IMG/VR virus record: IMGVR_UViG_3300022752_000048
Coordinates: 15,377-79,376 of that record
From: a virus
Reading direction: 5' to 3' (one strand)
DNA: 64,000 nt
Shown: piece by piece, positions 9,844-49,053 of the stretch
How positions within the stretch are numbered: position 1 is the first letter of the stretch
How the letters are laid out: the number at the start of each line of letters is the position of its first letter
Position numbers and translations under genes: made by a program
The notes under the pieces: model-generated
Told to the model about the DNA's origin: nothing
The model's input: the letters and a program-made list of their open reading frames with translations, nothing else
Database searches by the model: none

Positions 9844-10221
9844 TTAATTGAAAAAGTTGATGATTAACTCGCTGTTAGCGCCCGGAACAACAGATTCTGG
9901 CCTATAACAAATGCGTGTTGATGCATCAATTTGAATCAATCCGTAGCCACCGCCACCGGGAATAATTCTAAAAAGAACCGTTTCAGATCCTGATGCTCCG
10001 GTTGCTAATACTTCTACTTCACCACTAGAGCTGAATACTTCAATCATCGTGACTTTAGCTGCAGAAGAACTGAAAAGCTCAAGCCACGCCGATGTGCTTA
10101 CCGTTACAGATGTTGGTGTGCCTAGATCTTTATATAATTGCGCAGAGCCGCCGCCTTGATGAACAAGACGAATCGAAGATAATGCTTTTTTCTTTCCGCG
10201 TTCTGTTCCTGAATATGCCAT
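9844..10221 (-). CDS. Hypothetical virion protein (beta-rich)
   Basis: 125-aa ORF with GGAGA RBS, in the structural operon. Confidence 0.6.
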   Translation of the reverse strand: MAYSGTERGKKKALSSIRLVHQGGGSAQLYKDLGTPTSVTVSTSAWLELFSSSAAKVTMIEVFSSSGEVEVLATGASGSETVLFRIIPGGGGYGLIQIDASTRICYRPESVVPGANSELIINFFN

Positions 10222-10236
10222 TTTATCTATCTCCGA

Positions 10237-13200: not shown

Positions 13201-13941
13201 TGATGGAATAACTGGTGTTGAAACTCTTGCATTTACTGCTAAAATATCGGCACTTGTATCACCAAGCACTGTGTTGCCATCTACTTGAAGATTAGTGCCC
13301 AACCATAAAGATTTCCATCTTAATCCAGATGATCCAAAATCATAAAAATTATCTGTCGATGGAATAACAGAAGAAGCAACTCTTGCATTTAAAGTTAATG
13401 AATCGCTAGTTGCATCGCCAAGAATGATGTTTCCATTTACTTGTAAATCACCAGAAAAAAGTCCGTCAACTGAAGTTAGCTTAACACTGAGCCATAAATT
13501 TTGCCACCTTAAACTATCCTGACCTAAGCTATATAAATTTGTAATAGATGGATCAAAATTACTGGCAATTCTAGCAGTGAATGTGGCTGTGTCTGATGTT
13601 TGGTTACCAACAACTAAAGAATTATCAATTACTAAAGATCCATTTGTTTTTAATGTGCTAATATCAGATCTATATAAATTAACGTCTGGTACATTACCAC
13701 CTCCCAATCCCCATTCAATTAATCCATCGCGTTTAATTGCAAAAAGAGCATTGGTATCGCCCGAAATCCTGCTTTCATAAATTGATGTATTAGCAGGTAA
13801 TTGAGAAGATATTAAAGAATTGACAGTTGTTTGACCAATAACGTAAAGCGTTGAATCAAAATTAACGGCGCCACCAACATCTAAATAGAGCGGTGATGAC
13901 GGTGGAATTTTACCTATGCCAACTCTAGATACAATATGCAT
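10237..13941 (-). CDS. Large tail fibre protein D with 52-aa tandem repeats
   Basis: 1234 aa. Repeats of P...N.YDLGS...RW..LWL.NLQVDGN; C-terminal gp34-like module (TITLPLA...IKDIG...SVTLQSDGTSRWYII). Confidence 0.85.
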   Translation of the reverse strand: MHIVSRVGIGKIPPSSPLYLDVGGAVNFDSTLYVIGQTTVNSLISSQLPANTSIYESRISGDTNALFAIKRDGLIEWGLGGGNVPDVNLYRSDISTLKTNGSLVIDNSLVVGNQTSDTATFTARIASNFDPSITNLYSLGQDSLRWQNLWLSVKLTSVDGLFSGDLQVNGNIILGDATSDSLTLNARVASSVIPSTDNFYDFGSSGLRWKSLWLGTNLQVDGNTVLGDTSADILAVNARVSTPVIPSTNNSFDLGSSLFKWASLWLGTNLQVDGNTVLGDTSADILAVNARISTSVVPSSDNLNNLGSLSQRWASLWLGTNLQVDGNTILGDSPSDTVTINAGFASPINPSVDNFYDLGTLSYRWKQLHTGPSGVVVRNDTTDTNKVSLFFNSGVAVLNTSSAIPLQVTTGSNNGIKIDTSGRIGINTSASLSENFNVNGTSVFSDVAYFSKSSGTGLQVESVASIKGSVESGNTANELNIGIDSATQFVNIGTGSLTKTINIGTGTGKTTINIGGSSDIININGTVTTTQTIQSFVTDKTLSLNVGGLNGTAQNSGILVEEASSSFLTISNPTWQNGNTVRYSAVNTGNIEIGSVILISGFSFSQNNGQFTVTGILTNSYFEIQNTAVNSAAFNETNFGTTTNPTISGKILISSDRLGWEIYSPSNSLNYFKISNTGANVELKATSSGISVVATGLLPETSNTALGSSSKLWNAFLNNLTTYGDAVIGDASSDILTINATSSFVGNVNSNIIPNSGKNLGSLANPWAYLYAQNAIFSSSLEANGTINLGVDSTTTINANGKFSTSLVPSSNNYNLGSETYPWNTAYITSISFPTFQAGSVLFIDSTFKAAQNNSNFFWENNYKRLNLGQNDGPYVLDIKKYQSDSFRIRNSQNNSAIALRTKETLFNVTTSIQNGPEPAEVTSVSFNSTNRRIGQTFILSSTTNFQKISLQLSTVAPTLVPNLSGTMTVALYQVIGGVVQSTPIATSAPLNLLGFPIGFQTSFTDFNFYELQTLAAGTYLLAAEVVPIAGLLPPSSPSYLDNCVKIVSKADTSYGGGRAYFYDALSGWQLISPAADLCFKIYDYVDLNTPVVNKFEFTDILQFGANTYSNVGNGTSTAVLELSSTAVKLLGAVSVNSTSISSATYTVQPTDVILNVNTTVSGCTITLPLAATKRILVIKDIGNNASTTGRSIQLAPASNEYVEFNTINVPFVIERDGESVTLQSDGTSRWYII
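12840..13620 (-). repeat. Intragenic tandem repeat, 156-bp (52-aa) period, about 5 units
   Basis: An 83-bp block is identical at 13073..13155 and 13229..13311 (offset 156); more diverged copies flank it. Confidence 0.9.
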
Positions 13942-13956
13942 TGTAATTATCCATAA

Positions 13957-14211
13957 TTAAACGTTTAATGGAATTTTTTGTCCAACTTTATTTTCCATAT
14001 TTTTTTGCATTGCTAAAACCCAATCAATACCTAGGAAAATTTCGCATTCATCCCATTTTACAATTTCTTTTAAAGAGCCGTCTTCAAAGTATAAAACCAT
14101 TTTACCAGAATCTTTATCAATAGCGTGGCCAATCACCTTATATTTTTTGCAAAAAGAAAAAATATTTAAAAATAAATGCCGGCGATATTTAAAAATATAT
14201 GGATGATTCAT
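13957..14211 (-). CDS. Hypothetical protein
   Basis: 84-aa ORF, TAATG-coupled to the upstream fibre gene; possible fibre assembly factor. Confidence 0.55.
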   Translation of the reverse strand: MNHPYIFKYRRHLFLNIFSFCKKYKVIGHAIDKDSGKMVLYFEDGSLKEIVKWDECEIFLGIDWVLAMQKNMENKVGQKIPLNV

Positions 14212-15698
14212 TATTTAATCCTCATTACATATACAGTAGAAATGTATTTAGGGCGAGAATCATATGAAGACGTCGAACCTGTATTTCCGCTGTTGCCACT
14301 CATATCTGTTGTATAAGTGGTATGTGCATGGTTTAGATCACCACCATCAGAATATTGTTGCCAATATGTAGTAAGATCGTGATCGTGATCCGTATTTACA
14401 TACCCATGGTCATAAAGTCCGCCTTCTCCTTCTACCGCCGACATTGTATTAAGATCAGAACCTAAACCGGAATTAGAAGCAAATCCGGCACCCCAAAATC
14501 CACCTCCGCCTCTTGCCTCCTGAAATTGCTGTCTCCATCTATGCCTATGAAATGAATTAGCTTTTCTTTGTGGTAAAGAATCGTCAGTAGCGTGAGAATG
14601 GCGAGCATTAAATGCGGATGAACCCGACTGTGAGTGCCCATGAGTAATTGTGTGATTATGAGAGGGTATGTTTGCTGTTGAAAGCGTTGTAATATTTGTA
14701 CCACCAGTACTGCCCGCAGTAACATTACCCATCAAAAATACATCATTATTTATTCTTGGAATTGATTGTCCATTTAATGGACTGGTTGCATCGTTTATAA
14801 TCTGATTACCAGATTGTCCGTTGAATCCGCATAATACAAATCCATAGCTGTCTGCAACTGTTGTAGCAGAACAAACATATGCACCAGAAAGATTTGATGC
14901 TAGGGCAATAATTCCACCTACAGGAATAAAACCTACGCCAACTGCGGTGCCCGAAATAGTAAAAGTTCCGGTAACAATTGTGTTATTTAGCGTTTTGTTA
15001 TTTATAGTCTGAGAATTATTTGTGCCAACAAATATATCTGTATTATCTGGAAGAGTCCATACACGATCTGCAGAAGCTTGAGAAAGGATTTTATGAGTAA
15101 ATGCAGAACTGCCAGGTTCTAAAGAAATTATTCCAGATTTATTAGGAGTTTTAAGCAGCCATTCATTTCTGTTTGAAGATGTTTTTACGTATGAAACTAT
15201 TACATTATTTTCTTCAATTTCAAATCCTGCACCAGACGCAGAAGAAGCTGTTCCGTTTTTATTAACCGTAAACAATTTATCAAATACTTGAAGATCGGTT
15301 GATTGTATTTTATTAAAAATGCCAAAAATATTAACAGTAGAATTATTATTTCCAATATTAATCGTGGTCGCAGAAACTGTACCAATATTTATAATTGCGC
15401 CATCAGATTCAACAGAACCTGCATTTTTTATAACTAAATTCTGTGTGTAGGTATTGCTCCAAAATAAAGAAGAAGAGCCGAAATTTCTTGAAAGAGTCGT
15501 AGAAGGCTCAACGTTTGTATCAATTCGTCCATTTACAGAAATTAAATCAGCTGTTGTATCGCCTAACTCTACACCGGCATTAAAAAATGCAGTATTTTGA
15601 AAAAATACTTGAGAATCAAAATTAGAAGATCCAGAAACATCTAAATGATAAACTGATCCAGGATCTTTACCTATGCCGACTCTACTAATAATTCTCAT
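14211..15698 (-). CDS. Tail fibre protein E with His-x-His metal-binding needle tip
   Basis: Collar-like segment (PVGGIIA...GFVLC), six HxH motifs and C-terminal RPKYISTVYVMRIK, as in T4 gp12/gp37-type tips. Confidence 0.8.
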   Translation of the reverse strand: MRIISRVGIGKDPGSVYHLDVSGSSNFDSQVFFQNTAFFNAGVELGDTTADLISVNGRIDTNVEPSTTLSRNFGSSSLFWSNTYTQNLVIKNAGSVESDGAIINIGTVSATTINIGNNNSTVNIFGIFNKIQSTDLQVFDKLFTVNKNGTASSASGAGFEIEENNVIVSYVKTSSNRNEWLLKTPNKSGIISLEPGSSAFTHKILSQASADRVWTLPDNTDIFVGTNNSQTINNKTLNNTIVTGTFTISGTAVGVGFIPVGGIIALASNLSGAYVCSATTVADSYGFVLCGFNGQSGNQIINDATSPLNGQSIPRINNDVFLMGNVTAGSTGGTNITTLSTANIPSHNHTITHGHSQSGSSAFNARHSHATDDSLPQRKANSFHRHRWRQQFQEARGGGGFWGAGFASNSGLGSDLNTMSAVEGEGGLYDHGYVNTDHDHDLTTYWQQYSDGGDLNHAHTTYTTDMSGNSGNTGSTSSYDSRPKYISTVYVMRIK

Positions 15699-30722: not shown

Positions 30723-33671
30723 ATGTCGCACTTTAAATTGTTTGATTTTGTTGACCAACATCCCGAAGAAAAACGTCCATGGAATAACCATTGGAAGAAC
30801 AAAAAAATCTGTACAAATATGCACTGCCATTCACACTTCTCATTAGATGGTGGTTCAACCGTTCAGACTATGGTTGAACGAGCTGTGGAATTGGAATACA
30901 CACACTTTACTCTTTCCGAGCACGGCAACGTAAACAGCGCCGTTGCTTTGTATCGAGAGGCTGAAAAGATTAATAAGAAAGAAAAGAAAATTAAGTTGTT
31001 TCATTCTGTCGAAGCTTATATTCGTCACCCTAAAGATGAAAAATCTACCCATATTACTATCGGATTTAAAACACAGGCCGCGTTTCAAAAATATTGTGAG
31101 CTCACCCACACACTTTACGATGAAAAACACATGGAAGTCAAATGGGGTGATGTTAAACCGGTAATGACTACCGAACACTTAGAAGAACTGGCAGCTCATG
31201 GAATTGTCATAGGGACTGGCTGTATTGGTTCATTCTTTAACTATCCTATCTATAAGCACGGTAACGTTAAAGAATCACGCGACCGCCTTGAATGGGTTAT
31301 GGGTCTAGTTGGCAAAGACAACATTTACGATGAATGGATTGTCGATGACCTTAGTAAATACTATGCGCCTGCAAAAGTTGAAGAAGGTAAAATTATTAAA
31401 GAGGCGGCGTTGGAACTTAACGAATGCTCACCACATTTATTGCAATACGGACAAAACACTCCAAACATTGGTAAAGCTGTAAATAATGTTCGCCGCCAGT
31501 ACGTTACTGGCCCACTAAACGTTAAACCTATTGTTTCGCTCGACTCCCATTATGCCCGTAAGAAAGATAAAGTAATTCAAGATTCTAAGAATTATGGTTC
31601 AGACTGGATTATGTCGAATTTTCAACATATGCGCGGTGCAGAAGAATATGCATATGAGGCTAAAAAATACGGTGATCTAGACGATAAATTTATTGAAGAG
31701 CTAATCGATAACACCGAAGACTATGCCGAACAGTTTAATAGTTATGAGTTTGGTCCATCAAAAGAATGGATCATGCCTAATTATGAAGACTCCAACCTAA
31801 AATGGATTGTCGACAAGATTAAATCTGAAAAACGAATTAACTTGGAAAGTAAAGATTACGCTGAGCGCCTCAATTATGAAATTAAAGTGCTTGGCAATAA
31901 TGGCGTATTTGACGGTCTAGCATATCTAAGAACGGTTAGCGAAATTTGCGACGAGGCGGAAAAACGCAATATTTTGGTTAATACACGTGGTTCAGCTGGT
32001 GGTAGCCTTTCGTATTTTGCTGTGGGTGCATCCGTTACTGATCCAATTAAATATGATCTTCAGTTTGAACGTCATATTACTCTTGGCCGTATTAAGTCTG
32101 GATCTTTGCCAGACTGTGATTTGGACTTTGACGTAAAAGACGAAGCCCTAAAAATGATCTACGAAATGTATCCTGACCGAGTTTTGCCCATTTCAGTAAA
32201 CCAAAACCTTAAACCTCGCTCGGCAATTAAAGATGCAGAACGTTTTATTCTCGGATCTGTACGGCAGGAAACGGAAATCCTAACTAAGTCAATGCCAATT
32301 GTTCCACAAGGTAAAGACGAGACTGAATGGTTGTTTGGTTACGAAGATCATGAAACTGGTGAGCACGTCCAAGGCTATTTTGAGACTTCCCCAGAGCTTC
32401 GCACCTATGCAGAAAAGAATCCAGAAATTTGGATGATGGTAGAACAAATGTGTGGTGTTATGCGGCAAAAATCTTCACACCCGTGCGGGCTTATTATTAC
32501 ACCGTCCGATAGCAAGAAATGGCTGCCAGTTTGTCGCGTAGGTGGAAAGAATGGCGCACTTGTTACAGCGTGGTGCCCAAAAGATTTGGAATGGTATCGT
32601 GCAGTAAAGTTTGACGTGCTTGGTGTTAAAAAGATGCAAACAATCAAGAAAACATTCGAGCTGATTAAACAACGCCATGGAATTGATTTAAAATGGGGTG
32701 AGTTTGATCATAATGATCAAGTGTTTGAGAATATTTATCACGCAGGTAAAACCGATGCCACGTTCCAAACAAATACTTCCGGTATTCGTTCGTTGTGTGT
32801 AAGAACTAAACCAAAAAACATTGTTGATATTTCCAACCTAATTGCTTTGTATCGTCCATCTACAATTGACTGGCAGATGCATTTGCAGGCATCTGAAGAG
32901 CGACCAAGCGGATTTCACGGCAACGCTATGGAATTTTATGTGCAATGCTCTGCCGGCAATCAGAAACCGTATTATATTCATCCCTCGCTCGAACCTATTT
33001 TTGGTTCGACGTTCGGAGTACCATTGTTTCAAGAACAGATCCTAAAGCTTGCTCGAGAAGTCGGCGGCTATTCATTTGAAGAAGCAGAAAACCTTCGTCG
33101 CGGTATTGGTAAAAAAGATAAAAAGCTTATTAACGAAATTCTAGATGATATGGAAAAACGAATTATTGCCAAAGACTCTTCCTGGACCAAAAGCCAATTG
33201 CACGAATTGCGGGAAATGGTTATTGCATCTGCACGTTATGGATTCAATTGTGCCCATAGTACATCTTATGGAATTGTTTCTTACGCTACGGCATGGCTTA
33301 AAAATAATTATCCGTTGGAATTCTGGACGGCAGAGTTGAGCGTTGAATATGGCGATGAAGACAAACTCCGGGAATATTCACAATTAATTTCTGATAAACT
33401 ACTTCAGCCATCCGTCCTGCATTCCGACACTACAGACTTTGTCATTGAAGGAGGCAAGATTCGCGTCCCCTTATGTGTTTTAAAGGGAGTTGGAGAAGAA
33501 GCTGCAAAAGCGGTCAAAAAACTCATGCATAATAGTTTAGAGGAGATCGGTTTAACCAAAAAGCCACAAGTGGTCAAAAACCCGAAAGAATCCACTAAAC
33601 GTGCAAAAGTACTTAGTGACCAAAAACCGGATGATAATTTGCTGTCGCTCAGGCAAGGGCAGGAAACCTAA
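30723..33671 (+). CDS. dnaE: DNA polymerase III alpha-like (DnaE), N-terminal fragment: PHP + polymerase + first HhH
   Basis: PHP HCHSHFSLDG/SEHGN/LDSHY; RGSAGGS; PDCDLDF; KFDVLG; ALYRP; YGFNCAHSTSY. Homology stops after LKGVGEEAAKAV, and there is no OB fold. Confidence 0.95.
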   Translation: MSHFKLFDFVDQHPEEKRPWNNHWKNKKICTNMHCHSHFSLDGGSTVQTMVERAVELEYTHFTLSEHGNVNSAVALYREAEKINKKEKKIKLFHSVEAYIRHPKDEKSTHITIGFKTQAAFQKYCELTHTLYDEKHMEVKWGDVKPVMTTEHLEELAAHGIVIGTGCIGSFFNYPIYKHGNVKESRDRLEWVMGLVGKDNIYDEWIVDDLSKYYAPAKVEEGKIIKEAALELNECSPHLLQYGQNTPNIGKAVNNVRRQYVTGPLNVKPIVSLDSHYARKKDKVIQDSKNYGSDWIMSNFQHMRGAEEYAYEAKKYGDLDDKFIEELIDNTEDYAEQFNSYEFGPSKEWIMPNYEDSNLKWIVDKIKSEKRINLESKDYAERLNYEIKVLGNNGVFDGLAYLRTVSEICDEAEKRNILVNTRGSAGGSLSYFAVGASVTDPIKYDLQFERHITLGRIKSGSLPDCDLDFDVKDEALKMIYEMYPDRVLPISVNQNLKPRSAIKDAERFILGSVRQETEILTKSMPIVPQGKDETEWLFGYEDHETGEHVQGYFETSPELRTYAEKNPEIWMMVEQMCGVMRQKSSHPCGLIITPSDSKKWLPVCRVGGKNGALVTAWCPKDLEWYRAVKFDVLGVKKMQTIKKTFELIKQRHGIDLKWGEFDHNDQVFENIYHAGKTDATFQTNTSGIRSLCVRTKPKNIVDISNLIALYRPSTIDWQMHLQASEERPSGFHGNAMEFYVQCSAGNQKPYYIHPSLEPIFGSTFGVPLFQEQILKLAREVGGYSFEEAENLRRGIGKKDKKLINEILDDMEKRIIAKDSSWTKSQLHELREMVIASARYGFNCAHSTSYGIVSYATAWLKNNYPLEFWTAELSVEYGDEDKLREYSQLISDKLLQPSVLHSDTTDFVIEGGKIRVPLCVLKGVGEEAAKAVKKLMHNSLEEIGLTKKPQVVKNPKESTKRAKVLSDQKPDDNLLSLRQGQET

Positions 33672-36859: not shown

Positions 36860-36924
36860 TTGACTTTTATTGAAATTAATGCCATTGTCTTATATTAGCA
36901 AATCGCTAATATAAATTATACACT
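36860..36924. promoter_or_regulatory. Overlapping face-to-face promoters with 10-bp inverted repeat
   Basis: Plus strand TTGACT-17-CATTGT (36860..36888); minus strand AGTGTATAATTT (36913..36924); perfect inverted repeat TTATATTAGC-AAATC-GCTAATATAA (36890..36914). Confidence 0.55.
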
Positions 36925-36935
36925 TGGAGTCGTCT

Positions 36936-37859
36936 ATGGCAATTGATTTAAGTAAGATGACATTTGGCGCTGAGTTAGAACTGGGTGATGTTGATACAAA
37001 AATTGTTTTACCGCCCGGAAATAGATGGTGCGATAAAGACGGATCTATCTGTAATTCCAACGGAACTGCAAACGATCCCAAAAAAATCTTCAATCGATAT
37101 GGCGGCGAAATCCAAATGAAACCGGAAAACACACCGGAAGAATTGCTTCGTGCTACGAAGGAGATTTACGACCTTCTCCCTAAAAAACATTTTAACTTTA
37201 CAACTAATTTACACGTTCATATTCGTATCCCCGGCCTTAAAGACGATTTAGAGGCCCTAAAGAAAATTGTCACGTATCTTCGAAAATATGATGAAGAAAT
37301 CTATGAACTTATAGATCCAAACCCATTTCCAGAGCGTCAGCTAAAGTTTTCAAATCCAGATTTTTATAATGGTGCAGTCTCAAGATGGCGTCGAAGGAAT
37401 AAATCCCATAGATACCGGGTTACAGAAAAAGTTTATAAACTTATGATGAATGCCAAATCTCCACGCGAATTTTACGAGGCACACGCCCCCAAGAATCGTT
37501 TTGGACAACCTATGTGGCATGTTGTTGTTAGGGCTGGTGTTAACCTAAAACAAATATTCGAAGATACGGAAACTATTGAGTTTCGGCATTTCACGATGTC
37601 GCCAGATTTAAACAAAATGCTTTCCGCCTATAAATGGCCAAAGCTTTTGATGGAAGCTATTTTTGTTACTGGTCATACACCAAAACAAATTTTAGAAAAC
37701 AATCCAGATCTGGTATTTCAAAACTTTCATCCGTATGACCACGGGCTAGACAAAATTTTTAGGCAGACTAATGTTTATCATAACAAACGTTCAGAAGTAC
37801 GAGAGAATTACAAGCGTTTAATCGAACAAGGTTTGATAAACGAACAGTCCTTATATTGA
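36936..37859 (+). CDS. Amidoligase (COOH-NH2 ligase, Amidoligase_2-like)
   Basis: TFGAELE, W.DKDGSI, GGEI, LHVHI and TETIEFRHF motifs. Start moved to ATG 36936, which follows a GGAG RBS. Confidence 0.8.
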   Translation: MAIDLSKMTFGAELELGDVDTKIVLPPGNRWCDKDGSICNSNGTANDPKKIFNRYGGEIQMKPENTPEELLRATKEIYDLLPKKHFNFTTNLHVHIRIPGLKDDLEALKKIVTYLRKYDEEIYELIDPNPFPERQLKFSNPDFYNGAVSRWRRRNKSHRYRVTEKVYKLMMNAKSPREFYEAHAPKNRFGQPMWHVVVRAGVNLKQIFEDTETIEFRHFTMSPDLNKMLSAYKWPKLLMEAIFVTGHTPKQILENNPDLVFQNFHPYDHGLDKIFRQTNVYHNKRSEVRENYKRLIEQGLINEQSLY

Positions 37860-37866
37860 GGAATAT

Positions 37867-38319
37867 ATGAAAATTTTATTTATCTGTACTGGCAATAAAT
37901 TCCGCAGTCCAACTGCGGAGCATATTATGAAATGCCTAGCGCCGCATTTAGAAGTTAAATCCGCTGGAACCGCAGAAGGAGCTGATAAAAACTATTTAAT
38001 GGCTAAAAAAATGCGTCGTTGTTTAGTGGAATTAGGTTATCCCGAGCCTAAAATTCGGTCGCAGCATGTTACGGATGATCTTATGAATTGGGCTGATGTA
38101 GTTTTTTATATGGCACCAATTCATGGTAAATATTTGTTTGAAAACCATTACCCGTTTATTAATAAAACCCAAGGTTTATACAGTTGGCTTCCAGAAGAAA
38201 GTTTAAAAAGGATTGAAGACCCCGCCTTTATTAAAAATCACGAAGATGTAATGGAAATTACTAAATTAATTGAAAAAGCTGTAAAATCAATTCTGGCACA
38301 ACAAGCTAAGCGTATTTAA
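37867..38319 (+). CDS. Low-molecular-weight phosphatase (LMW-PTP/ArsC fold)
   Basis: ILFICTGNKFRS P-loop, SAGT, WADVVFYM and IEDP general acid. Confidence 0.9.
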   Translation: MKILFICTGNKFRSPTAEHIMKCLAPHLEVKSAGTAEGADKNYLMAKKMRRCLVELGYPEPKIRSQHVTDDLMNWADVVFYMAPIHGKYLFENHYPFINKTQGLYSWLPEESLKRIEDPAFIKNHEDVMEITKLIEKAVKSILAQQAKRI

Positions 38320-38549
38320 ATTTCAGAATTGCTGATTTTGTTTTTTTGACGAGAGCCTGTTGGGATAGAGGTACCCGGAAGTTTAGGAGCTTCCGGCATT
38401 TTTATTTCTGGAGCTTTAAATGTAGTTTTCTTGGAAATAGAAGATACAGTGCCGTCCAGAATTTTATACATTCTGTCTTGGACAGTTTCGGCAGGGGTGG
38501 ATTTAGCCATTTTCTTGCATAGTTCGACTATTTCTAATAGCTTGTTCAA
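38316..38549 (-). CDS. Small K/P-rich protein, probable virion protein
   Basis: TTG start with GAGG RBS, MAKS motif, and TGGTAAAAT upstream (38600..38608). Confidence 0.5.
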   Translation of the reverse strand: MNKLLEIVELCKKMAKSTPAETVQDRMYKILDGTVSSISKKTTFKAPEIKMPEAPKLPGTSIPTGSRQKNKISNSEI

Positions 38550-39039
38550 GTTCGGCCTCTGTTACAATCCAAGGTGGTACGCAAACCATTTTATGCTCTA
38601 TTTTACCATATTGGATATTGGATAAAAAAGGCTTCATGAGTTCTTGTTCATCTTGGTGGCGATTTTCTTTAATATAACCGATACTATTGATATTTTTATC
38701 AAGTAGTTTAGACATACAAGCCATGCAGGGCTGGATACTCACAATAAATTGATATTTATGAATATTCATTGTTTCTGTCATCTTTTCAATAAGATCTGCC
38801 TCGGCATGACGAACTAAGAATTTTTTGGCAGGATTTTTGTCGATTGCAAGTTCAGCAAGAGCCTTTGAACTTTTTTCAAAAGCAGAAATTATCTTATTAA
38901 CGCCGTAGGCAACAACCGAATTTGTTGAAGGGTCTATGGCAATTGAAACTACCTGAACTAGTGGATCGCTACTTCGTTTTTTAAGAACGTCAAATAGGAT
39001 CTCGGTGCTAACTACAGGATAGGTGCCGTAGACAAACAT
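38503..39039 (-). CDS. dCMP/cytidine deaminase-like protein
   Basis: SSDP.VQV, HAE and PCMAC zinc motifs. Confidence 0.8.
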   Translation of the reverse strand: MFVYGTYPVVSTEILFDVLKKRSSDPLVQVVSIAIDPSTNSVVAYGVNKIISAFEKSSKALAELAIDKNPAKKFLVRHAEADLIEKMTETMNIHKYQFIVSIQPCMACMSKLLDKNINSIGYIKENRHQDEQELMKPFLSNIQYGKIEHKMVCVPPWIVTEAELEQAIRNSRTMQENG

Positions 39040-39650
39040 TCTTTAATTCCTTGCTGTAGCTTTTGCACTACTTGTTCGGGTGAATCTTCAAAATCTACTT
39101 TTACTAGAGTAACAGGGGCGCGGCATAAATCCAAGAAATATCCTACGCACATCTTTGCTCTATCTGTAAATACCTGAACATTATTAAATGTTAAATCAGG
39201 AAGTCGTTCTTCGACAATTCCGGCATTTTTTCTGCGGAGCGAAAGGCGTTCTCTGATTTTTTCTACTGCAAAGTCGTAATGAACTACTACAACACGAATA
39301 TCTTGTTTATGGCGATATTCGTTCACCATTTCAACCCAACGTGAGGTCGACATAACGCCATCGATAATAACTGTATCTGATAGCTCTAGAGCATCGAAAA
39401 AACCAGTTCTAACTAAGGATGGTGTGGTTATAGAATCCGTGCCAGAATTTTTATTACCAACCAAAACACAATTATCATATTGAACAATACTATATTTTTG
39501 CTCAATCGTAGCACCTCTATTTGGCATCCGCTTTTTAATGAATTTACCCATCTTAGAAATTTCTTTGCCGGCCCCCTGGCAAAAAGTGTTTCTAGTGGTA
39601 GTTTTACCTGTTGCGCCTGCGCCCATAAGGAAAATTGCTAGCTTAGTCAT
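39012..39650 (-). CDS. P-loop kinase, type associated with DNA base-modification clusters
   Basis: Walker A GAGATGKTT, LVG...SGTDSI, VIIDG and lid RERLSLRR. Confidence 0.7.
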   Translation of the reverse strand: MTKLAIFLMGAGATGKTTTRNTFCQGAGKEISKMGKFIKKRMPNRGATIEQKYSIVQYDNCVLVGNKNSGTDSITTPSLVRTGFFDALELSDTVIIDGVMSTSRWVEMVNEYRHKQDIRVVVVHYDFAVEKIRERLSLRRKNAGIVEERLPDLTFNNVQVFTDRAKMCVGYFLDLCRAPVTLVKVDFEDSPEQVVQKLQQGIKECLSTAPIL

Positions 39651-40017
39651 GGAAACCCTCTATGTACTCCTGATTAGTTTTATGGCATTTAACGCAAATT
39701 CTATTTCCGTGTGGCGAAAAGAAAACAGTATTACACTTCAAACAATTTCTGTTTTTTGGCTCTGCAGATCCATGTTCCAAAAAGAACTTTTCGTCTGCCT
39801 TCCGCAGTTCTTCCATAAGCTGTTTATGCCTCTGTTTACGTCTATTTGACGTTTTTTCTCTATTCTTTTTAACTTTTTCTGTCAAATCATTCCAGCTCAA
39901 ATTATGATGTTCGACATAATTTTTCATGAAAGATTCATGATTATCTGTAACAGGAACTGGAATGTTAAGAGTTTTGCAAAACACCTTTAGTGTAATTTTG
40001 ATTTCATTAACAATCAT
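39643..40017 (-). CDS. Hypothetical protein with C-terminal Zn ribbon
   Basis: CLKC...RICVKC; coupled to the kinase gene. Confidence 0.65.
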   Translation of the reverse strand: MIVNEIKITLKVFCKTLNIPVPVTDNHESFMKNYVEHHNLSWNDLTEKVKKNREKTSNRRKQRHKQLMEELRKADEKFFLEHGSAEPKNRNCLKCNTVFFSPHGNRICVKCHKTNQEYIEGFHD

Positions 40018-40027
40018 TGTTTTGCCT

Positions 40028-40357
40028 TTACTCTAATTCTGCACCCATATCGACGATCCCCTCCTTTTGAAGGAGCGAAAGGGCAAATACTCTTTTAGAA
40101 TCTGCAAAGTTTTTAGTTTCGTTAAACGCACTTCTAAAAGTTTGTAAAATTTCTTGTGCAGCCTTGAATTCTGGATTAGCTTCCATTTCCTTCTTAGCTT
40201 TAAGTACGTGCGCATTTTGTTCTGCAATAATCTGTTTTAGTTTATCTACATTATAAGTTTTAAGCATTTGCAATTCATCATAAGAATAGTTTTTTACAAA
40301 CGCTTTTTCAATGTCACTCAAATGGCTATATTTATTTGACTTACTCTTCTTTCTCAT
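40028..40357 (-). CDS. Hypothetical helical protein
   Basis: 109 aa, GGAGG RBS, ATGA-coupled to the ADDT gene. Confidence 0.65.
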   Translation of the reverse strand: MRKKSKSNKYSHLSDIEKAFVKNYSYDELQMLKTYNVDKLKQIIAEQNAHVLKAKKEMEANPEFKAAQEILQTFRSAFNETKNFADSKRVFALSLLQKEGIVDMGAELE

Positions 40358-41217
40358 ACGACATCCTCCACAAAAAGTAATTGCTGGTTTTTAATATATG
40401 CAGTTTTTTCTTTTACTGAAAAATGGTGTTGAAGAAATTTATGATCAAATCCGCATTCATCAATTAAATTCCAAAATACGTCATCTGTATAAATTTCTGG
40501 CTTTTTAAGAACTAAAAACTCATTGATATCATGTCCAACTACATAACTCCCCTTATGCAATATTTTAGGTACTTTACACAAACAACTTTCGACTTGACCA
40601 ATTGGCGCATTCCACACTCTAGATAAGTTCCAACCTAGAGCTTCCCATTCTGGAATTATGTCTTTTGTAAATTTTTGGTTAATTCCATATAGGTAGCGAA
40701 GCCCAAACACCGGCCCAGTGTTTTTATTAGGGTCAGCATTCTCGATTCCTAATCCATTAATGCGAAGGCTGTTATATCTCAGTGTTTGATCCATAAGCTC
40801 ACAGGTTTTATAGCAAGCCCAGTCCCCAAAATATGGGATCGTTTTAAACAGTTCTCGTCCGCTATTAAAATCTAGAGGTTTTGTTTTGAGTGTAGTTTCG
40901 ACTTTTGTCCATTTATCAAAAGCTTTTTCAAAATTTTCAATACGACGAACTTGCGGAGTTCTACCCCGTTCCATACCAAAGCGGCTGATTTTTTCAAACA
41001 TTTGTGTAGGACTTTTTCCATCAGAAAGTCCACGCATAAACAAGATCATGCTTTCGATAGAATAATAATAAACGTACATAAAAATTGCGGTTTCCGGATC
41101 AAATTTTTCATGTTTAATAATTGATTTTAGGAGAGGATAAACAGGATCAACGTCTTTGGTATGGATTAAGGCTAGGCTTGCCTTCTCGAAATCGGAAAAA
41201 TTAAATAGATGTTGCAT
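40354..41217 (-). CDS. Amino acid:DNA transferase (ADDT / aGPT-Pplase2 family, HhH-glycosylase fold)
   Basis: DVDPVY, ERGR, YFGDWACYKTCE, GP..GL, VESCLCK and GSYVVGHDINE match the motif series I recall for phage thymidine-hypermodification transferases. Confidence 0.75.
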   Translation of the reverse strand: MQHLFNFSDFEKASLALIHTKDVDPVYPLLKSIIKHEKFDPETAIFMYVYYYSIESMILFMRGLSDGKSPTQMFEKISRFGMERGRTPQVRRIENFEKAFDKWTKVETTLKTKPLDFNSGRELFKTIPYFGDWACYKTCELMDQTLRYNSLRINGLGIENADPNKNTGPVFGLRYLYGINQKFTKDIIPEWEALGWNLSRVWNAPIGQVESCLCKVPKILHKGSYVVGHDINEFLVLKKPEIYTDDVFWNLIDECGFDHKFLQHHFSVKEKTAYIKNQQLLFVEDVV

Positions 41218-42106
41218 ACAAATACTCTTGAACTGCGTCGGCTAGTTCTTTAATATATGTTGGTGCATGGCGTAAACCATTTGCGGACTTTGGTGTCACA
41301 TACATCGAAGCACCTTCTTGAATAAACGCATGTGAATAGTCTTCCATATAAGCCGGCCTCCACCCTGTTTTAGGATCACCGGTAACTTGGATGCCTACCT
41401 TCCCATCGGTTACTTTAGAAATATGTTCAATAATTTTTTCAATTTTATCTTTAATTTCTAGATCTTTTTGTTCTTTTTGATAAATAAAATGAGTACCTAG
41501 ATAATAGGTGTCTGTAGTTGGCCTTGGATATAAATAGGCGTTAATAAAACGGCCTTCTTTAGCATTTAAACAAAACCTTGGATAACGATCAAATACTTCT
41601 CCACTTGGTTTGCATTCTACTGACCAACCCCAACGATAATCCGTTGGTTTGTATTTGTGAAAACCATTTGCATGGATAACAAGTCGATTGGTTGGTGTTT
41701 TGTCTACGCGGCTAGAAAAGAAAAATTCTTGAGTAAATTGTACAAATGCCTGTACATTAACATGCATTGATTGTTTATTTAAAATTTTAATATTTCCGAC
41801 AGTTTCAACAAATTTTAGTTCTTTGGAATTATTATGATGCGGAATGCTTTTCTGTGTATACCCATAAGGAACAGCTTCGGAAAACAAAATAATCGGGCGA
41901 CGATCTGCTTGGCCAAATGATTGCAGCCATAAGTTATAGTTAACTTCGTCTAGCTCCTCACCGGACGGATAAATACACCCAGTGCTGGCTTTCCATGCAC
42001 CGGGTGAATCATTGTCTTCCCACGAAAACATAATTTTTCTATTTGTTAATTCCCAAGCAAGGAGCGAGCCAATTAATCCAAAGCCCTTAATATGTACTGT
42101 AGACAT
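41201..42106 (-). CDS. FAD-dependent oxidoreductase (DAO/glycine-oxidase-like)
   Basis: VHIKGFGLIGSLLAWEL Rossmann motif, A..ASTG, TGWRP and ANGL..AP. Confidence 0.8.
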   Translation of the reverse strand: MSTVHIKGFGLIGSLLAWELTNRKIMFSWEDNDSPGAWKASTGCIYPSGEELDEVNYNLWLQSFGQADRRPIILFSEAVPYGYTQKSIPHHNNSKELKFVETVGNIKILNKQSMHVNVQAFVQFTQEFFFSSRVDKTPTNRLVIHANGFHKYKPTDYRWGWSVECKPSGEVFDRYPRFCLNAKEGRFINAYLYPRPTTDTYYLGTHFIYQKEQKDLEIKDKIEKIIEHISKVTDGKVGIQVTGDPKTGWRPAYMEDYSHAFIQEGASMYVTPKSANGLRHAPTYIKELADAVQEYLYATSI

Positions 42107-42122
42107 TTTTTAATTCCCGATT

Positions 42123-42620
42123 TTAATATGGACCAAAGGCTCCACTTCCGCGCCGGCGTGACGGAATTGCATTCTGGCGCTGTTGTTCTTCCCATTCCTT
42201 CTGTAGCTCCTCCTGTGTTGCTGTGATTACTGGCGACGGTGTGCGTGGGCTTGCTGTCGTCGCCAATGTCCCGTTTCCCACAGGAGTTTGCTGTTTTGGT
42301 GCGGGAGAAGAAAGATTTTGGTTAATACGTTGCAAGACTTCTACCACAGGATTGCTGGAAATTTCTTTAAACAAAGCTGCTAGTTTAGTTGCTTTTTCTT
42401 CTACCTCGGAAACAGCCTTAACAGTTTCTGGATTATTATTTTCCAGCAGCTGTTCTAGCACAGTGTTTAAACTTTTTTGAATATGTCCCCAAAGAAATTC
42501 TCCGCTTGGCAAAGACAAAATACCTTCTTTTAGAACTTCGTTCTCTAGGGCAGATTGAACGTCACTAAGTAATTTAATTTTCTCTTTCTTGTCCATATTA
42601 TCCCTCGTAAATATCGGCAT
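42123..42620 (-). CDS. Hypothetical protein
   Basis: Helical ORF in the operon; the real start is probably the internal Met (MDKKEK) after GAGGG. Confidence 0.6.
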   Translation of the reverse strand: MPIFTRDNMDKKEKIKLLSDVQSALENEVLKEGILSLPSGEFLWGHIQKSLNTVLEQLLENNNPETVKAVSEVEEKATKLAALFKEISSNPVVEVLQRINQNLSSPAPKQQTPVGNGTLATTASPRTPSPVITATQEELQKEWEEQQRQNAIPSRRRGSGAFGPY

Positions 42621-43686
42621 TCATGGCAATGCCCATGTTCTTAGAAGTAAACACTTCTTGTTTGATTTTGGCGTACAGGTTTTCATCCATTTTGACCAAA
42701 TCAACAAACTTGGACATATTGCCTGCCTTAATTCCAAGCTCTTCTGGGCCAAAGTAAATGGTGTTGCCAGTTTCTTTCTTATGGAGTACGCCAAGATTTA
42801 GCGCTAGCTCTACAAGCTCTTCATACTGGTTAGCCAGTTCACCGCTTTCCATGTTTAGCCAGAATTCAGCAGCCTTGCCCTCGACAGTAAGACGAGTCTT
42901 ATTAACTTTGCAGCGAACCTTGGAACCGACCGCAATATTCTTGCCTTGGCCGTCTTTGGATTCGGAAACCAGCTTGTCCTTCATGCCAGTTGCCTTTTCC
43001 AAGAAAATAATAGTGGAGCACAAGTGTTTTAGCCGTTGACCACCAGTAAGCACCCATGGATAGTATTTAGCCATGCGAGTATCAAGGTTGGCCATAGCGT
43101 GGTTAGTAAGGACTACTAGCACTTCGCACTCGTTAGCAATACGATTTAGTACGTTTAGCGCTGGATTGATGCTCTTAGAAATGCCACCGTAACCATTTGC
43201 AGCACCACTAACATCGCCTTCTTCCATCGCACCTTGTTCACCAAGCGCAGTAAGGGCCTTAACGGAATCGAGTACAATTGCGCAGCAGTCCTTGTTCTTC
43301 TTGATTTCCTCTTCAGCCTTAGCTAGGGGCTTAATAGCGCCTTCAAATGTATTTGACTGGATAACTACCAGACGGTCGAGATCAACACCCAAGCTGGCTG
43401 CCCGTTCAGGGTTAAACGCATATTCTGTGTCAATAAAGATGCCGTACTTGGTTGGGTTCATTCGTTGCTCTTGTGCCAGCAACTTTAAAGCCATAAGGCT
43501 TTTACCAGAACCAGGCGATCCCCATAGCATAACCAATTCACCTACTGGAATACCGCCACCAACAGCCCAGTCAAAAGAAACTGAACCGGTGCTCCTGACT
43601 TGTTTTTGTTTATTAGAAAATTCTTTGGCTACGGCAACTCGTTCCATTTTTAGCATTGACGACAAATAGCTTGGTAGTTTTGACAT
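42598..43686 (-). CDS. recA: RecA/UvsX-like recombinase
   Basis: STGS..FD.A.GGGIP.G, WGSPGSGKS, FIDTEYA, LGVDLDRL, IVLDSV, TGGQRLKH and KVNKTR. Confidence 0.95.
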   Translation of the reverse strand: MSKLPSYLSSMLKMERVAVAKEFSNKQKQVRSTGSVSFDWAVGGGIPVGELVMLWGSPGSGKSLMALKLLAQEQRMNPTKYGIFIDTEYAFNPERAASLGVDLDRLVVIQSNTFEGAIKPLAKAEEEIKKNKDCCAIVLDSVKALTALGEQGAMEEGDVSGAANGYGGISKSINPALNVLNRIANECEVLVVLTNHAMANLDTRMAKYYPWVLTGGQRLKHLCSTIIFLEKATGMKDKLVSESKDGQGKNIAVGSKVRCKVNKTRLTVEGKAAEFWLNMESGELANQYEELVELALNLGVLHKKETGNTIYFGPEELGIKAGNMSKFVDLVKMDENLYAKIKQEVFTSKNMGIAMNADIYEG

Positions 43687-46259: not shown

Positions 46260-47063
46260 TTAAATTGAAAAGTCGATGATATCTTGCAAATTAAAATAAG
46301 GCTTTTTAGTAAAGCTACTCACACCGACTTTTCCGACAAAAAGGCATAGCTTGTGGCGGTATGATCCAAGCTTTTTATTTATCTTAGGATCGTATTCAAA
46401 TACTTTTTTCTTTATTCCACTCACGGGATCATCAACTAATCTTTCTTTAGGCCACATGCGCACGCGAACATCATCACTTCCATCAAAGATGGAAACTTCT
46501 ATAAACTCTTTTCCGTCATATTTTTTAGTAGCATATCCATTAAAATAACCAAAAAAAGCCTTACGCCACATTCCTGTTTTTACGGAAAAATCTGATATTG
46601 TACCCTTATAATTTTTAGCAATCGCCACGCGATCTTCTATTTTGTTTCCGTTTTGATCAATTGTGAATTGGCGGGCAAAAGGAAATACTTCTGTAAACTC
46701 TTCTTTGGTAGTCTTAAACCCGAGCTGCTGTAATGCGGATTGGTAAACATTGCAGAAGCTAATAGAAAAAATAGGATTAAAATCAGCTAGCCATAATTGC
46801 CGATCAAAATCGGACGTAATTTTCTCCATTGGAATACGCTGTTCTTTGATTTTTGGAAACCCGGCAGTAGATTTGCAAGCTTTTTTAAGCTGCTCGATGG
46901 CCACAAACCGTTGTTCTACTGTTAACGGATCTGGAAAACAGTCATCAAATGCACCGCTCATGATCATAGTTATGATTGGCGAAACCATAATTTTAATTTC
47001 GCCAGTTTCGTAATTTTGTTTTACGTCTTTGACTTTGACCAAAAAATCTTCCCACTTACTCAA
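46260..47063 (-). CDS. dnaE: DNA polymerase III alpha-like (DnaE), C-terminal fragment: second HhH + OB fold
   Basis: KWEDF...ITMIMSGAFD resembles the DnaE LIxxGAFD motif. KKYDGKEFIEVSIFDGSDDVRVRMW and LCLFVGKV resemble the DnaE OB fold. Likely TTG start at 47063 after a GAGG RBS, overlapping the sbcC stop. Confidence 0.75.
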   Translation of the reverse strand: MSKWEDFLVKVKDVKQNYETGEIKIMVSPIITMIMSGAFDDCFPDPLTVEQRFVAIEQLKKACKSTAGFPKIKEQRIPMEKITSDFDRQLWLADFNPIFSISFCNVYQSALQQLGFKTTKEEFTEVFPFARQFTIDQNGNKIEDRVAIAKNYKGTISDFSVKTGMWRKAFFGYFNGYATKKYDGKEFIEVSIFDGSDDVRVRMWPKERLVDDPVSGIKKKVFEYDPKINKKLGSYRHKLCLFVGKVGVSSFTKKPYFNLQDIIDFSI

Positions 47064-49053
47064 TGTAAATAACCTCATCAAAGAAGTAATCTTGTGTATG
47101 ATGCTCAATCATCAAAACAAGTTTACGGTCTGAAATTTCCTTAATTGCACTAATACAGATTTCCTGGGTCGCAATATCACACCCCTGTAGGCTCTCGTCA
47201 AGCATCAAAATGGGGCTATTGTACATATCGGACAACGCTAGTTGGAACGCTAGAACTAAACGGCTAAACTGACCACCTGACAAATCATCTTCATTCAGAG
47301 TGTCTAGCACTTGGCCATCACAGGTTAATTCCAAGTTTATTGCAGAGATCTCTTTGTCTTTAGACTTTAGCTTGCGAGTTGTTTTAAGTTCAGCCTTAAC
47401 ACGACCGTCCAATAGGAGATCAAGCCAATATGTTGCGCGAAAGTTAATTTCATCAATGATGCTTTCTAGCGACTCCAACATTGACTTTTGCCAAATATCA
47501 TTAATTTCTGAACAGCCGGAATATAAATCTTTGGCGTCTTGTTTTTGTGTGGCGATTTCTTCCAAAGATTCTGTTAGAGCATTAAGCTTTTGCTCATATT
47601 GGTCGATTTTAGTCTTGATTTCGGCGTTTTTATTTAATTGGTGTAGTTTGGACTGATATTCTGATTTTTTATTAGCCTCTTCATTCAATTCATTTGAGTG
47701 GAGCTCAATTGCTGAATAAATAGTTTGAATTTTATTTTCCAGCTCTGTGATAGGAATCAAATTATTATTTGTGCTAATAATTTGGTCCGCCTTGAGCTTT
47801 TTCTTTTCAAGAGTAGCTGTGTTTGTTTCCACATCGTCTAAAAGAACTTTTTGTTTTCGCATATCTCTTAGATAAACACTCAATTCATTAGCCGCGTGTT
47901 CAAACTTTTCAATCTTTTGCTTACCAGCTTTAATTTTTGTATTAATTTCCGACTCAAAATTAGTTACAGAAATTGATTCTACGGCGTCGTGGTAACCTAG
48001 AAACTCTTCACACATCATCTTTAAATCTAGAACTTTATCTACAATTTCAGGCTCGCCGTATAATTCAATATTTTGCGTAAGATTTAATATCTTGCTTAAA
48101 GATAGTTGTTTTTGCTCTTGATGTCTTTCTAAGTTTTGCATCTGCGAAAGCAGCCATTCCATTTTATTAAGATCTTGTTTGAGCGTTTTAACTTCGGAAT
48201 TATATTCATTTATTTGCCGCTCAACAGCCTGTTCTTTAAAATCTTTTAATTTTTGTTGATACTCTTTTTGACGTGACTGCAGTTCACCCAAACTTTCTTC
48301 GTATTTTGATAAGAAATCTGAGGCCGTTTGGAAAACGGCGCGAGCTGGATGGTTTTTATTTTCGGTAAGACTAGTTCGATCTGTTTTGAGTTCATTAATT
48401 TTTGCTGTTAATGCAACAATATTCTTTTCGGTTGCTGCGATTTTGCGCTGCAAATCGACTGGAGAGCCTTTAACGTCAAACATTGTTTCGCTTAAAGACT
48501 TAATTGTGTTTTTAATTTCTTTGATTTTATCTTGAGTATTTTGCTCTTTATGTTCTAATTGATTAAGCAGATTGCCAACTTCTTTGATCTTTTCTGCAAT
48601 TTCTTCTTTTTGTTTAAATGGGTCAGAACCTTTAAACGCAAGCTTGTTAATCAACTCCATTTGCTCTGATGGTGACAAATTAATCAAACTGTTTTTTTGA
48701 TTTTGAGCAACATAAGAACAAATATCAAATTCTGTTTTATTCATGCGCAAAATGTTTTCGATTTCATTTTGTGCCGTAGAAGAACTAAGCCCGTTTACTT
48801 TGAGAATATTTGGACCGCGACCTCTAGTGATCGAAAGATCAAAGCCATCGAATTGAACTACTGTAGAATCTTCGTTCCAAGTAGTAATTTTGTTCTGCTT
48901 GCCATAAAAGGCATAACTGACTGCCTTAAAGATAGATGACTTTCCAACTCCGCTGCGACCATGGATTCGCACCATTCCTGTTTCTGGCAGAGAAAAAGAA
49001 ACGTCACTATGATTACGGAAGTTTGTCAAAGATAAATTGATACGATTTTTCAA
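47056..49053 (-). CDS. sbcC: SbcC/Rad50/gp46-like ATPase
   Basis: LTNFRNH, GRSGVGKSS, Q-loop YVAQ, coiled coil, LSGGQ, LMLDE and IEH. Confidence 0.95.
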   Translation of the reverse strand: MKNRINLSLTNFRNHSDVSFSLPETGMVRIHGRSGVGKSSIFKAVSYAFYGKQNKITTWNEDSTVVQFDGFDLSITRGRGPNILKVNGLSSSTAQNEIENILRMNKTEFDICSYVAQNQKNSLINLSPSEQMELINKLAFKGSDPFKQKEEIAEKIKEVGNLLNQLEHKEQNTQDKIKEIKNTIKSLSETMFDVKGSPVDLQRKIAATEKNIVALTAKINELKTDRTSLTENKNHPARAVFQTASDFLSKYEESLGELQSRQKEYQQKLKDFKEQAVERQINEYNSEVKTLKQDLNKMEWLLSQMQNLERHQEQKQLSLSKILNLTQNIELYGEPEIVDKVLDLKMMCEEFLGYHDAVESISVTNFESEINTKIKAGKQKIEKFEHAANELSVYLRDMRKQKVLLDDVETNTATLEKKKLKADQIISTNNNLIPITELENKIQTIYSAIELHSNELNEEANKKSEYQSKLHQLNKNAEIKTKIDQYEQKLNALTESLEEIATQKQDAKDLYSGCSEINDIWQKSMLESLESIIDEINFRATYWLDLLLDGRVKAELKTTRKLKSKDKEISAINLELTCDGQVLDTLNEDDLSGGQFSRLVLAFQLALSDMYNSPILMLDESLQGCDIATQEICISAIKEISDRKLVLMIEHHTQDYFFDEVIYIE

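Follow-up and report, generated by a model that had tools for sequence, protein, structure and literature searches.

A 64-kb stretch of viral DNA (hereafter the window; bases 15377-79376 of the 79,376-bp IMG/VR contig IMGVR_UViG_3300022752_000048) carries a cluster of nine genes that would direct a post-replicative DNA base hypermodification of the ADDT class. The cluster appears to represent an "oxidase plus amidoligase/phosphatase" subtype of such systems, in which the ligase acylates an aminomethyl base, a reading to which we give a probability of roughly 0.55. Hypermodified bases are a main route by which phages escape restriction and some CRISPR nucleases, and they are also a source of DNA-labelling enzymes. 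Few thymidine hypermodification pathways have been solved, and amidoligase clusters, although numerous in viromes, are without an assigned product: none is given for the ligase in PMC8989533, PMC13229309, PMC11472151 or PMC13458397. In the scheme proposed here, the ligase and its partner phosphatase would form a capping module that is interchangeable with an acetyltransferase, while an oxidase and a glutamine amidotransferase would provide alternative routes to the amine. An initial annotation of the same DNA had also proposed an ADDT-type pathway, which family, fold and context evidence supports, although its interpretation as a whole is only partly supported.

The cluster consists of seven minus-strand genes converging on a plus-strand amidoligase and a low-molecular-weight (LMW) phosphatase. 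This run and its convergence are as first described, with every open reading frame (ORF) at its reported position in the ORF map. The features are as follows, with lengths in amino acids (aa) or nucleotides (nt):

41201-42106, minus strand: FAD enzyme, 301 aa, a DAO-fold candidate glycinyl-base oxidase/lyase
40354-41217, minus strand: ADDT (ADDT/AADT, aGPT-Pplase2 family), 287 aa
40028-40357, minus strand: orf109, a small conserved protein (47% identity in locus L006)
39643-40017, minus strand: orf124, a small conserved protein with a C-terminal CxxC...CxxC pair
39012-39650, minus strand: P-loop kinase, 212 aa, a candidate 5-hydroxymethylpyrimidine DNA kinase, 5-HMUDK-like
38503-39039, minus strand: CDA-fold zinc deaminase of 178 aa, whose gene overlaps that of the kinase by 28 nt
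38316-38549, minus strand: orf77, a small conserved protein and the final gene of the leftward operon
36936-37859, plus strand: amidoligase, 307 aa from the ATG at 36936 (the ORF opens with a TTG at 36924)
37867-38319, plus strand: LMW phosphatase, 150 aa, its stop overlapping that of orf77 by 4 nt
38375-38396, plus strand: terminator-like hairpin, 56 nt past the phosphatase stop and within opposite-strand orf77

All nine genes are conserved at the protein level in three related loci (L003, L004/5 and L006, with ADDT identities of 89%, 75% and 48%, respectively), and the nine ORFs are therefore real genes. Direct comparison with Pfam is strong for LMWPc only. The deaminase just passes its cut-off, the amidoligase and the ADDT score below threshold, and the kinase and flavoenzyme have no significant match. 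The initial family calls nevertheless hold up, those of the last four proteins by profiles, folds, context and conserved catalytic residues.

A useful reference is the pathway of Pseudomonas phage PaMx11, which has been reconstituted (Lee et al., 2021; PMC8989533). Its 5-acetylaminomethyl-dU is made by the glycinyltransferase gp46 (PUGT), the glycinylthymidine oxidase gp47 (NGTO) and the acetyltransferase gp48, and the phage also encodes gp49, a 5-HMUDK, and gp51, a dUMP hydroxymethylase (PMC8989533, PMC11472151). The window resembles PaMx11 in having an ADDT with the same essential Glu and Cys, an adjacent DAO-fold flavoenzyme whose gene overlaps that of the ADDT, a P-loop DNA kinase, and a CDA-fold deaminase in the genome. 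It differs in having an amidoligase and an LMW phosphatase instead of a GNAT acetyltransferase, an oxidase of another sequence family, no Asn-type dUMP hydroxymethylase, and three extra small conserved ORFs plus the deaminase within the operon.

The assignment of the 287-aa protein as an ADDT, which had been made at the outset, holds up on profiles and catalytic residues rather than on a direct Pfam match. The protein itself reaches only 14.2 bits (E 0.036) against PF18724, below the cut-off of 26.2, but 10 of 15 members of its family match that model at E 0.01 or better, with a best E of 1.6e-13. When compared with the PDB, the family profile matches 25qc, an AADT domain protein (E 5e-8, residues 9-236), and 8z2m, which is PaMx11 gp46 (E 4e-6); a profile alignment to gp46 with hhalign gives 93.7% probability. 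All 15 sequences compared have E210 and C214, which align with gp46 E243 and C247 in the motif "vEtiLCK". These are the essential Glu and Cys, mutation of which abolishes activity in M6 gp51 and ViI gp247 (PMC8989533, PMC11472151). By motif, W133 and K137 are the counterparts of gp46 W146 and K150, and the WxxxK and DxDP motifs are also invariant. Searches with the ADDT by tblastn return weak actinophage matches only, including the Tonitrus "aGPT-Pplase2".

Similar reasoning applies to the 212-aa P-loop protein, for which Pfam yields nothing significant (best E 0.057). Its Walker A motif reads GAGATGKT, and when its family is aligned by hhalign to a collection of 5-HMUDK-type proteins that includes PaMx11 gp49 and the kinase of locus L010 (itself a match to Ploopntkinase3, PF18751, at E 1e-30), the probability is 95.2% (E 2.5e-8, 176 columns). 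Its membership among the 5-HMUDK-type P-loop kinases, judged from these profiles, holds up. The HMUDK_hel helical domain (PF18723) is found neither in the protein nor in the 79-kb contig. In G002, a syntenic relative of 169 kb, a stand-alone HMUDK_hel protein of 307 aa (E 1.6e-24) lies in a region outside the coverage of this contig. The neighbouring deaminase matches dCMP_cyt_deam_1 (PF00383; E 6.6e-6, 26.4 bits against a cut-off of 25), has both zinc motifs (HAE and PCxxC, here PCMAC), and has among its PDB matches the nucleoside deaminase 6l2m and human dCMP deaminase 2w4l.

The flavoenzyme has no Pfam match, DAO included, and a search of the PDB with its family sequence profile returned nothing significant, for which reason a fold search was used. 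An invariant GxGxxG (G8, G10, G13) occupies its N terminus. The AlphaFold2 (AF2) model (pLDDT 84; Foldseek E 5.7e-13) gives VIA Z scores of 22.8 for D-amino-acid oxidase and 20.2 for both the FAD domain of MnmC (3awi) and the glycine oxidase ThiO (1ng3). The enzyme is thus comparable to the oxidase domain of MnmC, which converts 5-carboxymethylaminomethyluridine to 5-aminomethyluridine (cmnm5U to nm5U) in tRNA, and to glycine, sarcosine and D-amino-acid oxidases, in fold (Z 20-23 over 280 residues), in the GxGxxG motif and in the proposed oxidation of the N-C-alpha bond of an N-substituted glycine. Unlike these enzymes, to which it is only 11-15% identical, its proposed substrate is a base in double-stranded DNA. 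Its position is also that of gp47: homologues of the enzyme lie between ADDT and GNAT genes in PaMx11-like cassettes of outgroup loci (L007 and L013-L017), which belong to a 327-kb jumbo phage and several high-G+C contigs and keep exactly the PaMx11 order of ADDT, oxidase, GNAT and kinase. An FAD oxidoreductase overlapping the ADDT gene (by 17 nt) had been recorded initially, and its glycine/D-amino-acid-oxidase fold and gp47-like position are borne out.

On the opposite strand, the amidoligase scores just short of Amidoligase_2 (PF12224; E 1e-3, 19.3 bits against a 22-bit cut-off), a threshold that its homologues P0047, P0052 and L010:2751-3617 (23.2 bits) pass. Its AF2 model is of high confidence (pLDDT 94.3), and all leading fold matches in Foldseek and VIA are YbdK, gamma-glutamylcysteine ligase (GCL), glutamine synthetase (GS) and PafA/Dop, the top VIA Z being 10.0 over 226 residues for the YbdK-type ligases 1tt4 and 1r8g. 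E17, E19, H97, H99, R203, N207, E219 and R221 are invariant, and the homologues begin with MAIDL. The assignment of the protein as a carboxylate-amine ligase of the GS/GCL fold therefore holds up on fold and conserved residues. It shares with those enzymes the fold (Z 8.4-10), Glu, His and Arg active-site residues and an expected acyl-phosphate mechanism; it differs from them in being far smaller (~300 aa), in belonging to the distinct family Amidoligase_2, in having a DNA base as its predicted amine, and in having an LMW phosphatase as an obligate-looking partner.

That phosphatase matches LMWPc (PF01451) at E 4.6e-15 (56.5 bits), and its closest PDB sequences are LMW protein tyrosine phosphatases and the arginine phosphatase YwlE. 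In 18 homologues, C7, N10, R13 and S14 of the CX5RS loop and D118 of the DP motif are invariant. The partner phosphatase gene is not described in those of the four papers cited above that were searched for "phosphatase", and among the papers that the literature searches turned up, none mentions it or gives the ligase a function.

The cassettes of other viruses place the ligase in a broader context. An amidoligase-profile search of IMG/VR gave 72 loci, which together with five further amidoligase-bearing loci form 55 clusters at 90% identity; partner genes were counted within 5 kb of the amidoligase. An ADDT is present in 50 of the 55 clusters, as had been anticipated in proposing a co-occurrence check, a P-loop kinase in 45 and an LMW phosphatase in 42, the last lying no more than 300 nt downstream of the ligase in 37 clusters, usually with a 4-nt overlap. 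Fusions also occur, with an amidoligase-LMWP ORF of 559 aa in L089 and an amidoligase-Ploopntkinase1 protein of 536 aa (P0051). An amidoligase or glutamine amidotransferase (GATase) has been reported in metagenomic clusters of 5-HMUDK and aGPT-Pplase2 genes (Lee et al., 2021, PMC8989533; O'Toole et al., 2026, PMC13229309), and GATases, kinases and AADTs have been reported beside ParB-dependent T-dioxygenases (O'Toole et al., 2026; PMC13229309). The window shares with such clusters the amidoligase family (30-52% identity), the partner phosphatase, the ADDT and the kinase. In those cassettes the genes are closely packed on a single strand, in the order oxidase or GATase, ligase, phosphatase, ADDT, kinase, beside an Asn-type thymidylate synthase (TS) homologue or Tet_JBP; the window instead has its ligase pair convergent with a PaMx11-like operon, and another source of the hydroxymethyl group.

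A flavoenzyme is present in 16 of the 55 clusters, with the clade of this window counted, and is gp47-like (E 1e-39 to 1e-76), of the DAO type seen in L010, or of the window family. These clusters, which usually have an Asn-type TS as well, encode the same five activities as the window. The enzyme set had initially been called unusual, a description that does not survive: the set occurs in no fewer than 16 dereplicated cassettes from metagenomes, and PMC8989533 had already reported the association with an amidoligase. In the other cassettes of this kind, the gp47-like or L010-type oxidase gene lies within ~3 kb of the ligase, and it abuts or overlaps the ligase start in several (L064, L106, L114, L116 and L128); amidoligase genes are found directly downstream of gp47-like oxidases. 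The high-G+C locus L010 has, in a row, ParB_N, ADDT, amidoligase, LMWP, DAO, Ploopntkinase3 and Tet_JBP.

A comparison that bears on the role of the ligase is with L006. This locus has the same gene order as the window, and at exactly the slot of the amidoligase and phosphatase it has an opposite-strand GNAT gene (Pfam E 3e-11). No match to GNAT, radical-SAM or GATase_6 was found in the contig or in the complete 169-kb relative, which bears out the initial remark that no GNAT or radical SAM gene is visible; pyridoxal-phosphate (PLP) enzymes were not searched for. The best reading of this arrangement is that the ligase-phosphatase pair takes the place of the GNAT acetyltransferase of a PaMx11-type pathway. 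Because of the GNAT-for-ligase slot in L006, and because the ligase lies downstream of gp47-like oxidases elsewhere, acylation of 5-aminomethyl-U by the ligase, as suggested initially, is likewise the best reading of its activity.

The same cassettes can be made to support a different use of carboxylate activation, in which the amidoligase would amidate the amino acid attached by the ADDT at its carboxylate, for example converting glycinyl-T to a glycinamide-type base or an amine conjugate. The aminomethyl base would then not be acylated, and the oxidase would act on another intermediate. Activating a carboxylate is what ligases of the GS/GCL fold do, and 27 of the 55 cassettes pair the ligase with a class-II GATase, the classical ammonia donor, in the absence of an oxidase and mostly alongside Tet_JBP. 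However, in cassettes with an oxidase, that enzyme would cleave off the carboxylate in question as glyoxylate (PMC8989533), and the swap of GNAT for ligase suggests that the two enzymes have the amine as their common target. Moreover, GATase and oxidase are mutually exclusive rather than additive: they co-occur in none of the clusters (hypergeometric P 1e-6, ignoring relatedness). This exclusivity suggests instead two alternative routes to one amine, either by direct ammonia transfer or by addition of glycine followed by oxidative cleavage, and amidation of the attached amino acid is accordingly considered unlikely. The amidotransferase-type cassettes (L070, L080, L087, L118 and others) often have a glycosyltransferase, Glycos_transf_1-like or a TET-associated glycosyltransferase, between the amidotransferase and the ligase, which hints at still more elaborate bases.

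It could also be that the ligase and phosphatase do not act on DNA at all and instead build the nucleophile of the ADDT in the metabolite pool, for example by joining two small molecules and removing a phosphate from what is formed. The two genes are tightly coupled, once fused and usually upstream of the ADDT and kinase, and the known substrates of LMW phosphatases and YbdK-type ligases are small molecules or proteins, not DNA. Yet in one homologue the amidoligase is joined to a DNA kinase of the 5-HMUDK type, and both the GNAT swap and the adjacency of ligase to oxidase speak against this arrangement, which seems improbable. A further role for the phosphatase, proposed initially, was removal of unused 5-phosphomethyl marks. 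This does not fit its distribution, which follows the ligase and not the kinase: none of ten ADDT-plus-kinase loci without a ligase, from six lineages, has the phosphatase, and an eraser function is ranked low. Its strict link to the ligase argues that the phosphatase functions at the ligase step; it appears to be an obligate partner there and may act on a phosphorylated co-substrate, intermediate or product.

Taken in the order suggested by PaMx11, the pathway favoured here would begin with phosphorylation of a 5-hydroxymethylpyrimidine in phage DNA, most likely 5-hydroxymethyldeoxyuridine (5-hmdU), by the P-loop kinase, whose family is assigned by profile and whose substrate is predicted. 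The Cys/Glu pair of the ADDT, conserved along with the family signature, would then exchange the phosphate for an amino acid, which is presumed to be glycine because of the partner oxidase. The flavoenzyme, by its fold and gene position and by analogy to PaMx11 gp47 and MnmC, would oxidise the N-C-alpha bond, freeing glyoxylate and leaving a 5-aminomethyl base. With ATP, the amidoligase would convert a free carboxylic acid to an acyl phosphate and join it to this amine, giving an N-acyl-5-aminomethyl base; the acid may, by the habit of the superfamily, be the gamma-carboxyl of glutamate. The LMW phosphatase would work with the ligase on one of the phosphorylated species mentioned above.

Several points weigh against acylation of an aminomethyl base by this route. 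Similarity of the flavoenzyme to gp47 is confined to the N-terminal Rossmann motif (BLASTP E 0.002; hhalign over 33 residues at 20% probability), and its membership of the gp47/NGTO family at the level of sequence was rejected on that ground. Most amidoligase cassettes (27/55) have no oxidase, so the ligase may act there on something other than an aminomethyl base. Glutamate as donor is a guess, made because GS, GCL and PafA activate glutamate. The phage is uncultured and seen in assembled contigs only, and the pathway is predicted from its genes. The remaining points concern the hydroxymethyl base. The TS homologue of the genome stands alone on the plus strand among minus-strand tail-like genes, ~46 kb from the cluster, and at the position of E. 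coli ThyA N177 it reads RSWDIFLGVPYD, with an Asp as in T4 gp42 D179. The other conceivable source, a 2-oxoglutarate (2OG) oxygenase of G002, scores E 5e-4 against Tet_JBP, below the cut-off, is marginal in a Tet_JBP profile comparison, and is known from that relative only, in a part of the genome outside this contig.

The TS homologue (genome 5131-5865, equivalent to L001:1291-2025; 244 aa) is the sole TS-family gene of the contig and lies 9.5 kb before the window, so that the TS-family gene is indeed outside the window, as initially supposed. A 77%-identical homologue occupies the same place in G002, which has no other TS gene. The best PDB match is the dCMP hydroxymethylase gp42 of T4 (E 2e-18, 29% identity), and the protein resembles gp42 in being short (~245 aa) and in having the catalytic Cys and the cytosine-specifying Asp; it differs in lying among tail genes, and neither a glucosyltransferase nor a gp56-like dCTPase was found in the T4 comparison. 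The Asp is shared by T4 gp42, CC31 gp42 and MilA, whereas five verified dUMP hydroxymethylases (of PaMx11, M6, SPO1, ViI and PhiW-14) have Asn, as do all 15 of the TS genes that lie beside other amidoligase cassettes. The homologue was therefore rejected as a uracil-specific dUMP hydroxymethylase. Of the initial proposals, the expectation that a TS-like hydroxymethylase would be encoded elsewhere in the genome was thus correct as to the family and not as to the type, and the proposed conversion of dCMP to dUMP and then, by a dUMP hydroxymethylase, to 5-hmdU is at odds with the Asp-type residue of the single TS homologue that this genome and G002 each encode. More generally, ADDT phages with only a cytosine-type C5-hydroxymethylase raise the question of where the substrate base originates.

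Three sources may be considered. In the first, which is a tentative suggestion, the gp42-like enzyme makes 5-hydroxymethyl-dCMP (hm-dCMP) and the in-cluster deaminase converts it to hm-dUMP. The complete ADDT-plus-kinase contigs G006 and G008 (L019, L020, L048 and L049) likewise have only Asp-type TS homologues, with a long C-terminal extension, and have a CDA deaminase gene 0.5-0.7 kb downstream of the TS gene; neither has a match to Tet_JBP. If correct, this route would be an unreported entry into thymidine hypermodification, common to ADDT phages with Asp-type TS only (G006, G008), and a literature search for deamination of hm-dCMP as a way of making hmU DNA found nothing. The deaminase is kept in the cluster of L006, and G002 has a second, more canonical dCMP deaminase away from the cluster (G002:124040-124552).

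In the second, equally tentative, thymine is oxidised in DNA by a 2OG-Fe(II) oxygenase such as that encoded in G002. There, a 217-aa 2OG-FeII_Oxy_3 protein lies directly beside the 307-aa HMUDK_hel protein (G002:79205-80699; L132, L036), near the portal and structural genes; in other viral loci, an HMUDK_hel gene is directly upstream of a dUMP hydroxymethylase. Tet_JBP dioxygenases are present in every one of the closest outgroup cassettes whose oxidase belongs to the window family, and some of these cassettes have an adjacent ParB-like gene.

The third, which is less probable than either of these, places the pathway on cytosine: the gp42-like enzyme would make 5-hm-dCMP, 5-hydroxymethylcytosine (5-hmC) would be incorporated in DNA, and the same enzymology would give an acylated 5-aminomethylcytosine, the in-cluster deaminase merely feeding dUMP and dTMP synthesis. 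It would be the first ADDT-type hypermodification of C. The Asp-type residue of the only TS-family gene in this genome and in G002 is in keeping with such a pathway, as are the TS complement of G006 and G008 and their want of Tet_JBP, and the kinase and ADDT are too divergent to reach the Pfam models of 5-hmdU enzymes. On the other hand, all characterised ADDT pathways begin with 5-hmdU (PMC8989533), the TS genes beside other amidoligase cassettes are all Asn-type, and the Tet_JBP and ParB-like neighbours of the outgroup cassettes form a context that PMC13229309 ties to T-dioxygenases. An operon-embedded deaminase that is conserved in L006 would be left without a role, the TS gene is distant from the cluster, and G002 encodes a dUTPase and a Tmk-like kinase. 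These last two genes lie in a row with a 287-aa gene (G002:132950-134860; L043) that matches nothing in Pfam or the PDB and resembles, weakly, only a PHROG "endonuclease V". Given the Asn-type TS genes beside cassettes, the Tet_JBP genes of the outgroups and L010, and the HMUDK_hel, dUTPase and thymidylate-kinase-like genes of G002, the modified pyrimidine is probably thymine rather than cytosine.

Finally, the genes of the cluster might be unrelated nucleotide-metabolism and accessory genes that are neighbours by chance and make no hypermodified base. Several direct Pfam scores fall below threshold, but the gene set recurs, with fusions, in very distant viral contigs of differing G+C content, and each of the five enzymes has conserved catalytic residues. 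Chance association is thus highly improbable, and assignment of the cluster to ADDT-class hypermodification is preferred.

The phage itself seems to be a freshwater one in its known occurrences, near-identical copies of the stretch being present in Logan contigs from freshwater and lake metagenomes only; a nucleotide search against 50,697 phage records gave zero matches. The contig is rated 48% complete. Because G002 is complete (rated 100%), syntenic and 169 kb long, the genome is estimated at ~165 kb, half of it absent from the contig. In G002, a Mom-family protein (Pfam E 3e-32) is encoded at 115262-115906 (L042:15262-15906), for which reason the lineage may also modify adenine alongside the pyrimidine pathway.

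Of the small ORFs within the cluster, orf109 and orf124 are conserved in L003-L006 and orf77 in L003, L004/5 and L006. Pfam and PHROG searches gave nothing significant for orf109 and zero matches for orf124 and orf77. The hairpin within orf77 has a 9-bp stem with five G-C pairs and a T-run, and is a consensus match only.

Elsewhere in the window, the 362-aa gene just upstream of the cluster (42598-43686, minus strand), RecA/UvsX-like by eye only, is by a wide margin the best conserved in this part of the window: it shares 96-99% identity with the relatives, where neighbouring genes share 69-91%. On the plus strand, positions 30723-33671 hold a PHP/DnaE-like polymerase gene of 982 aa, and a 665-aa gene lies 13 kb off at 47056-49053 on the minus strand. 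Several adjacent genes of ~244-267 aa at genome positions 10145-14257, before the window, and at window positions 7141-7872 all match one 234-aa protein of the relative, a pattern that, from sequence comparison, is read as a fibre or tip gene that has expanded locally.

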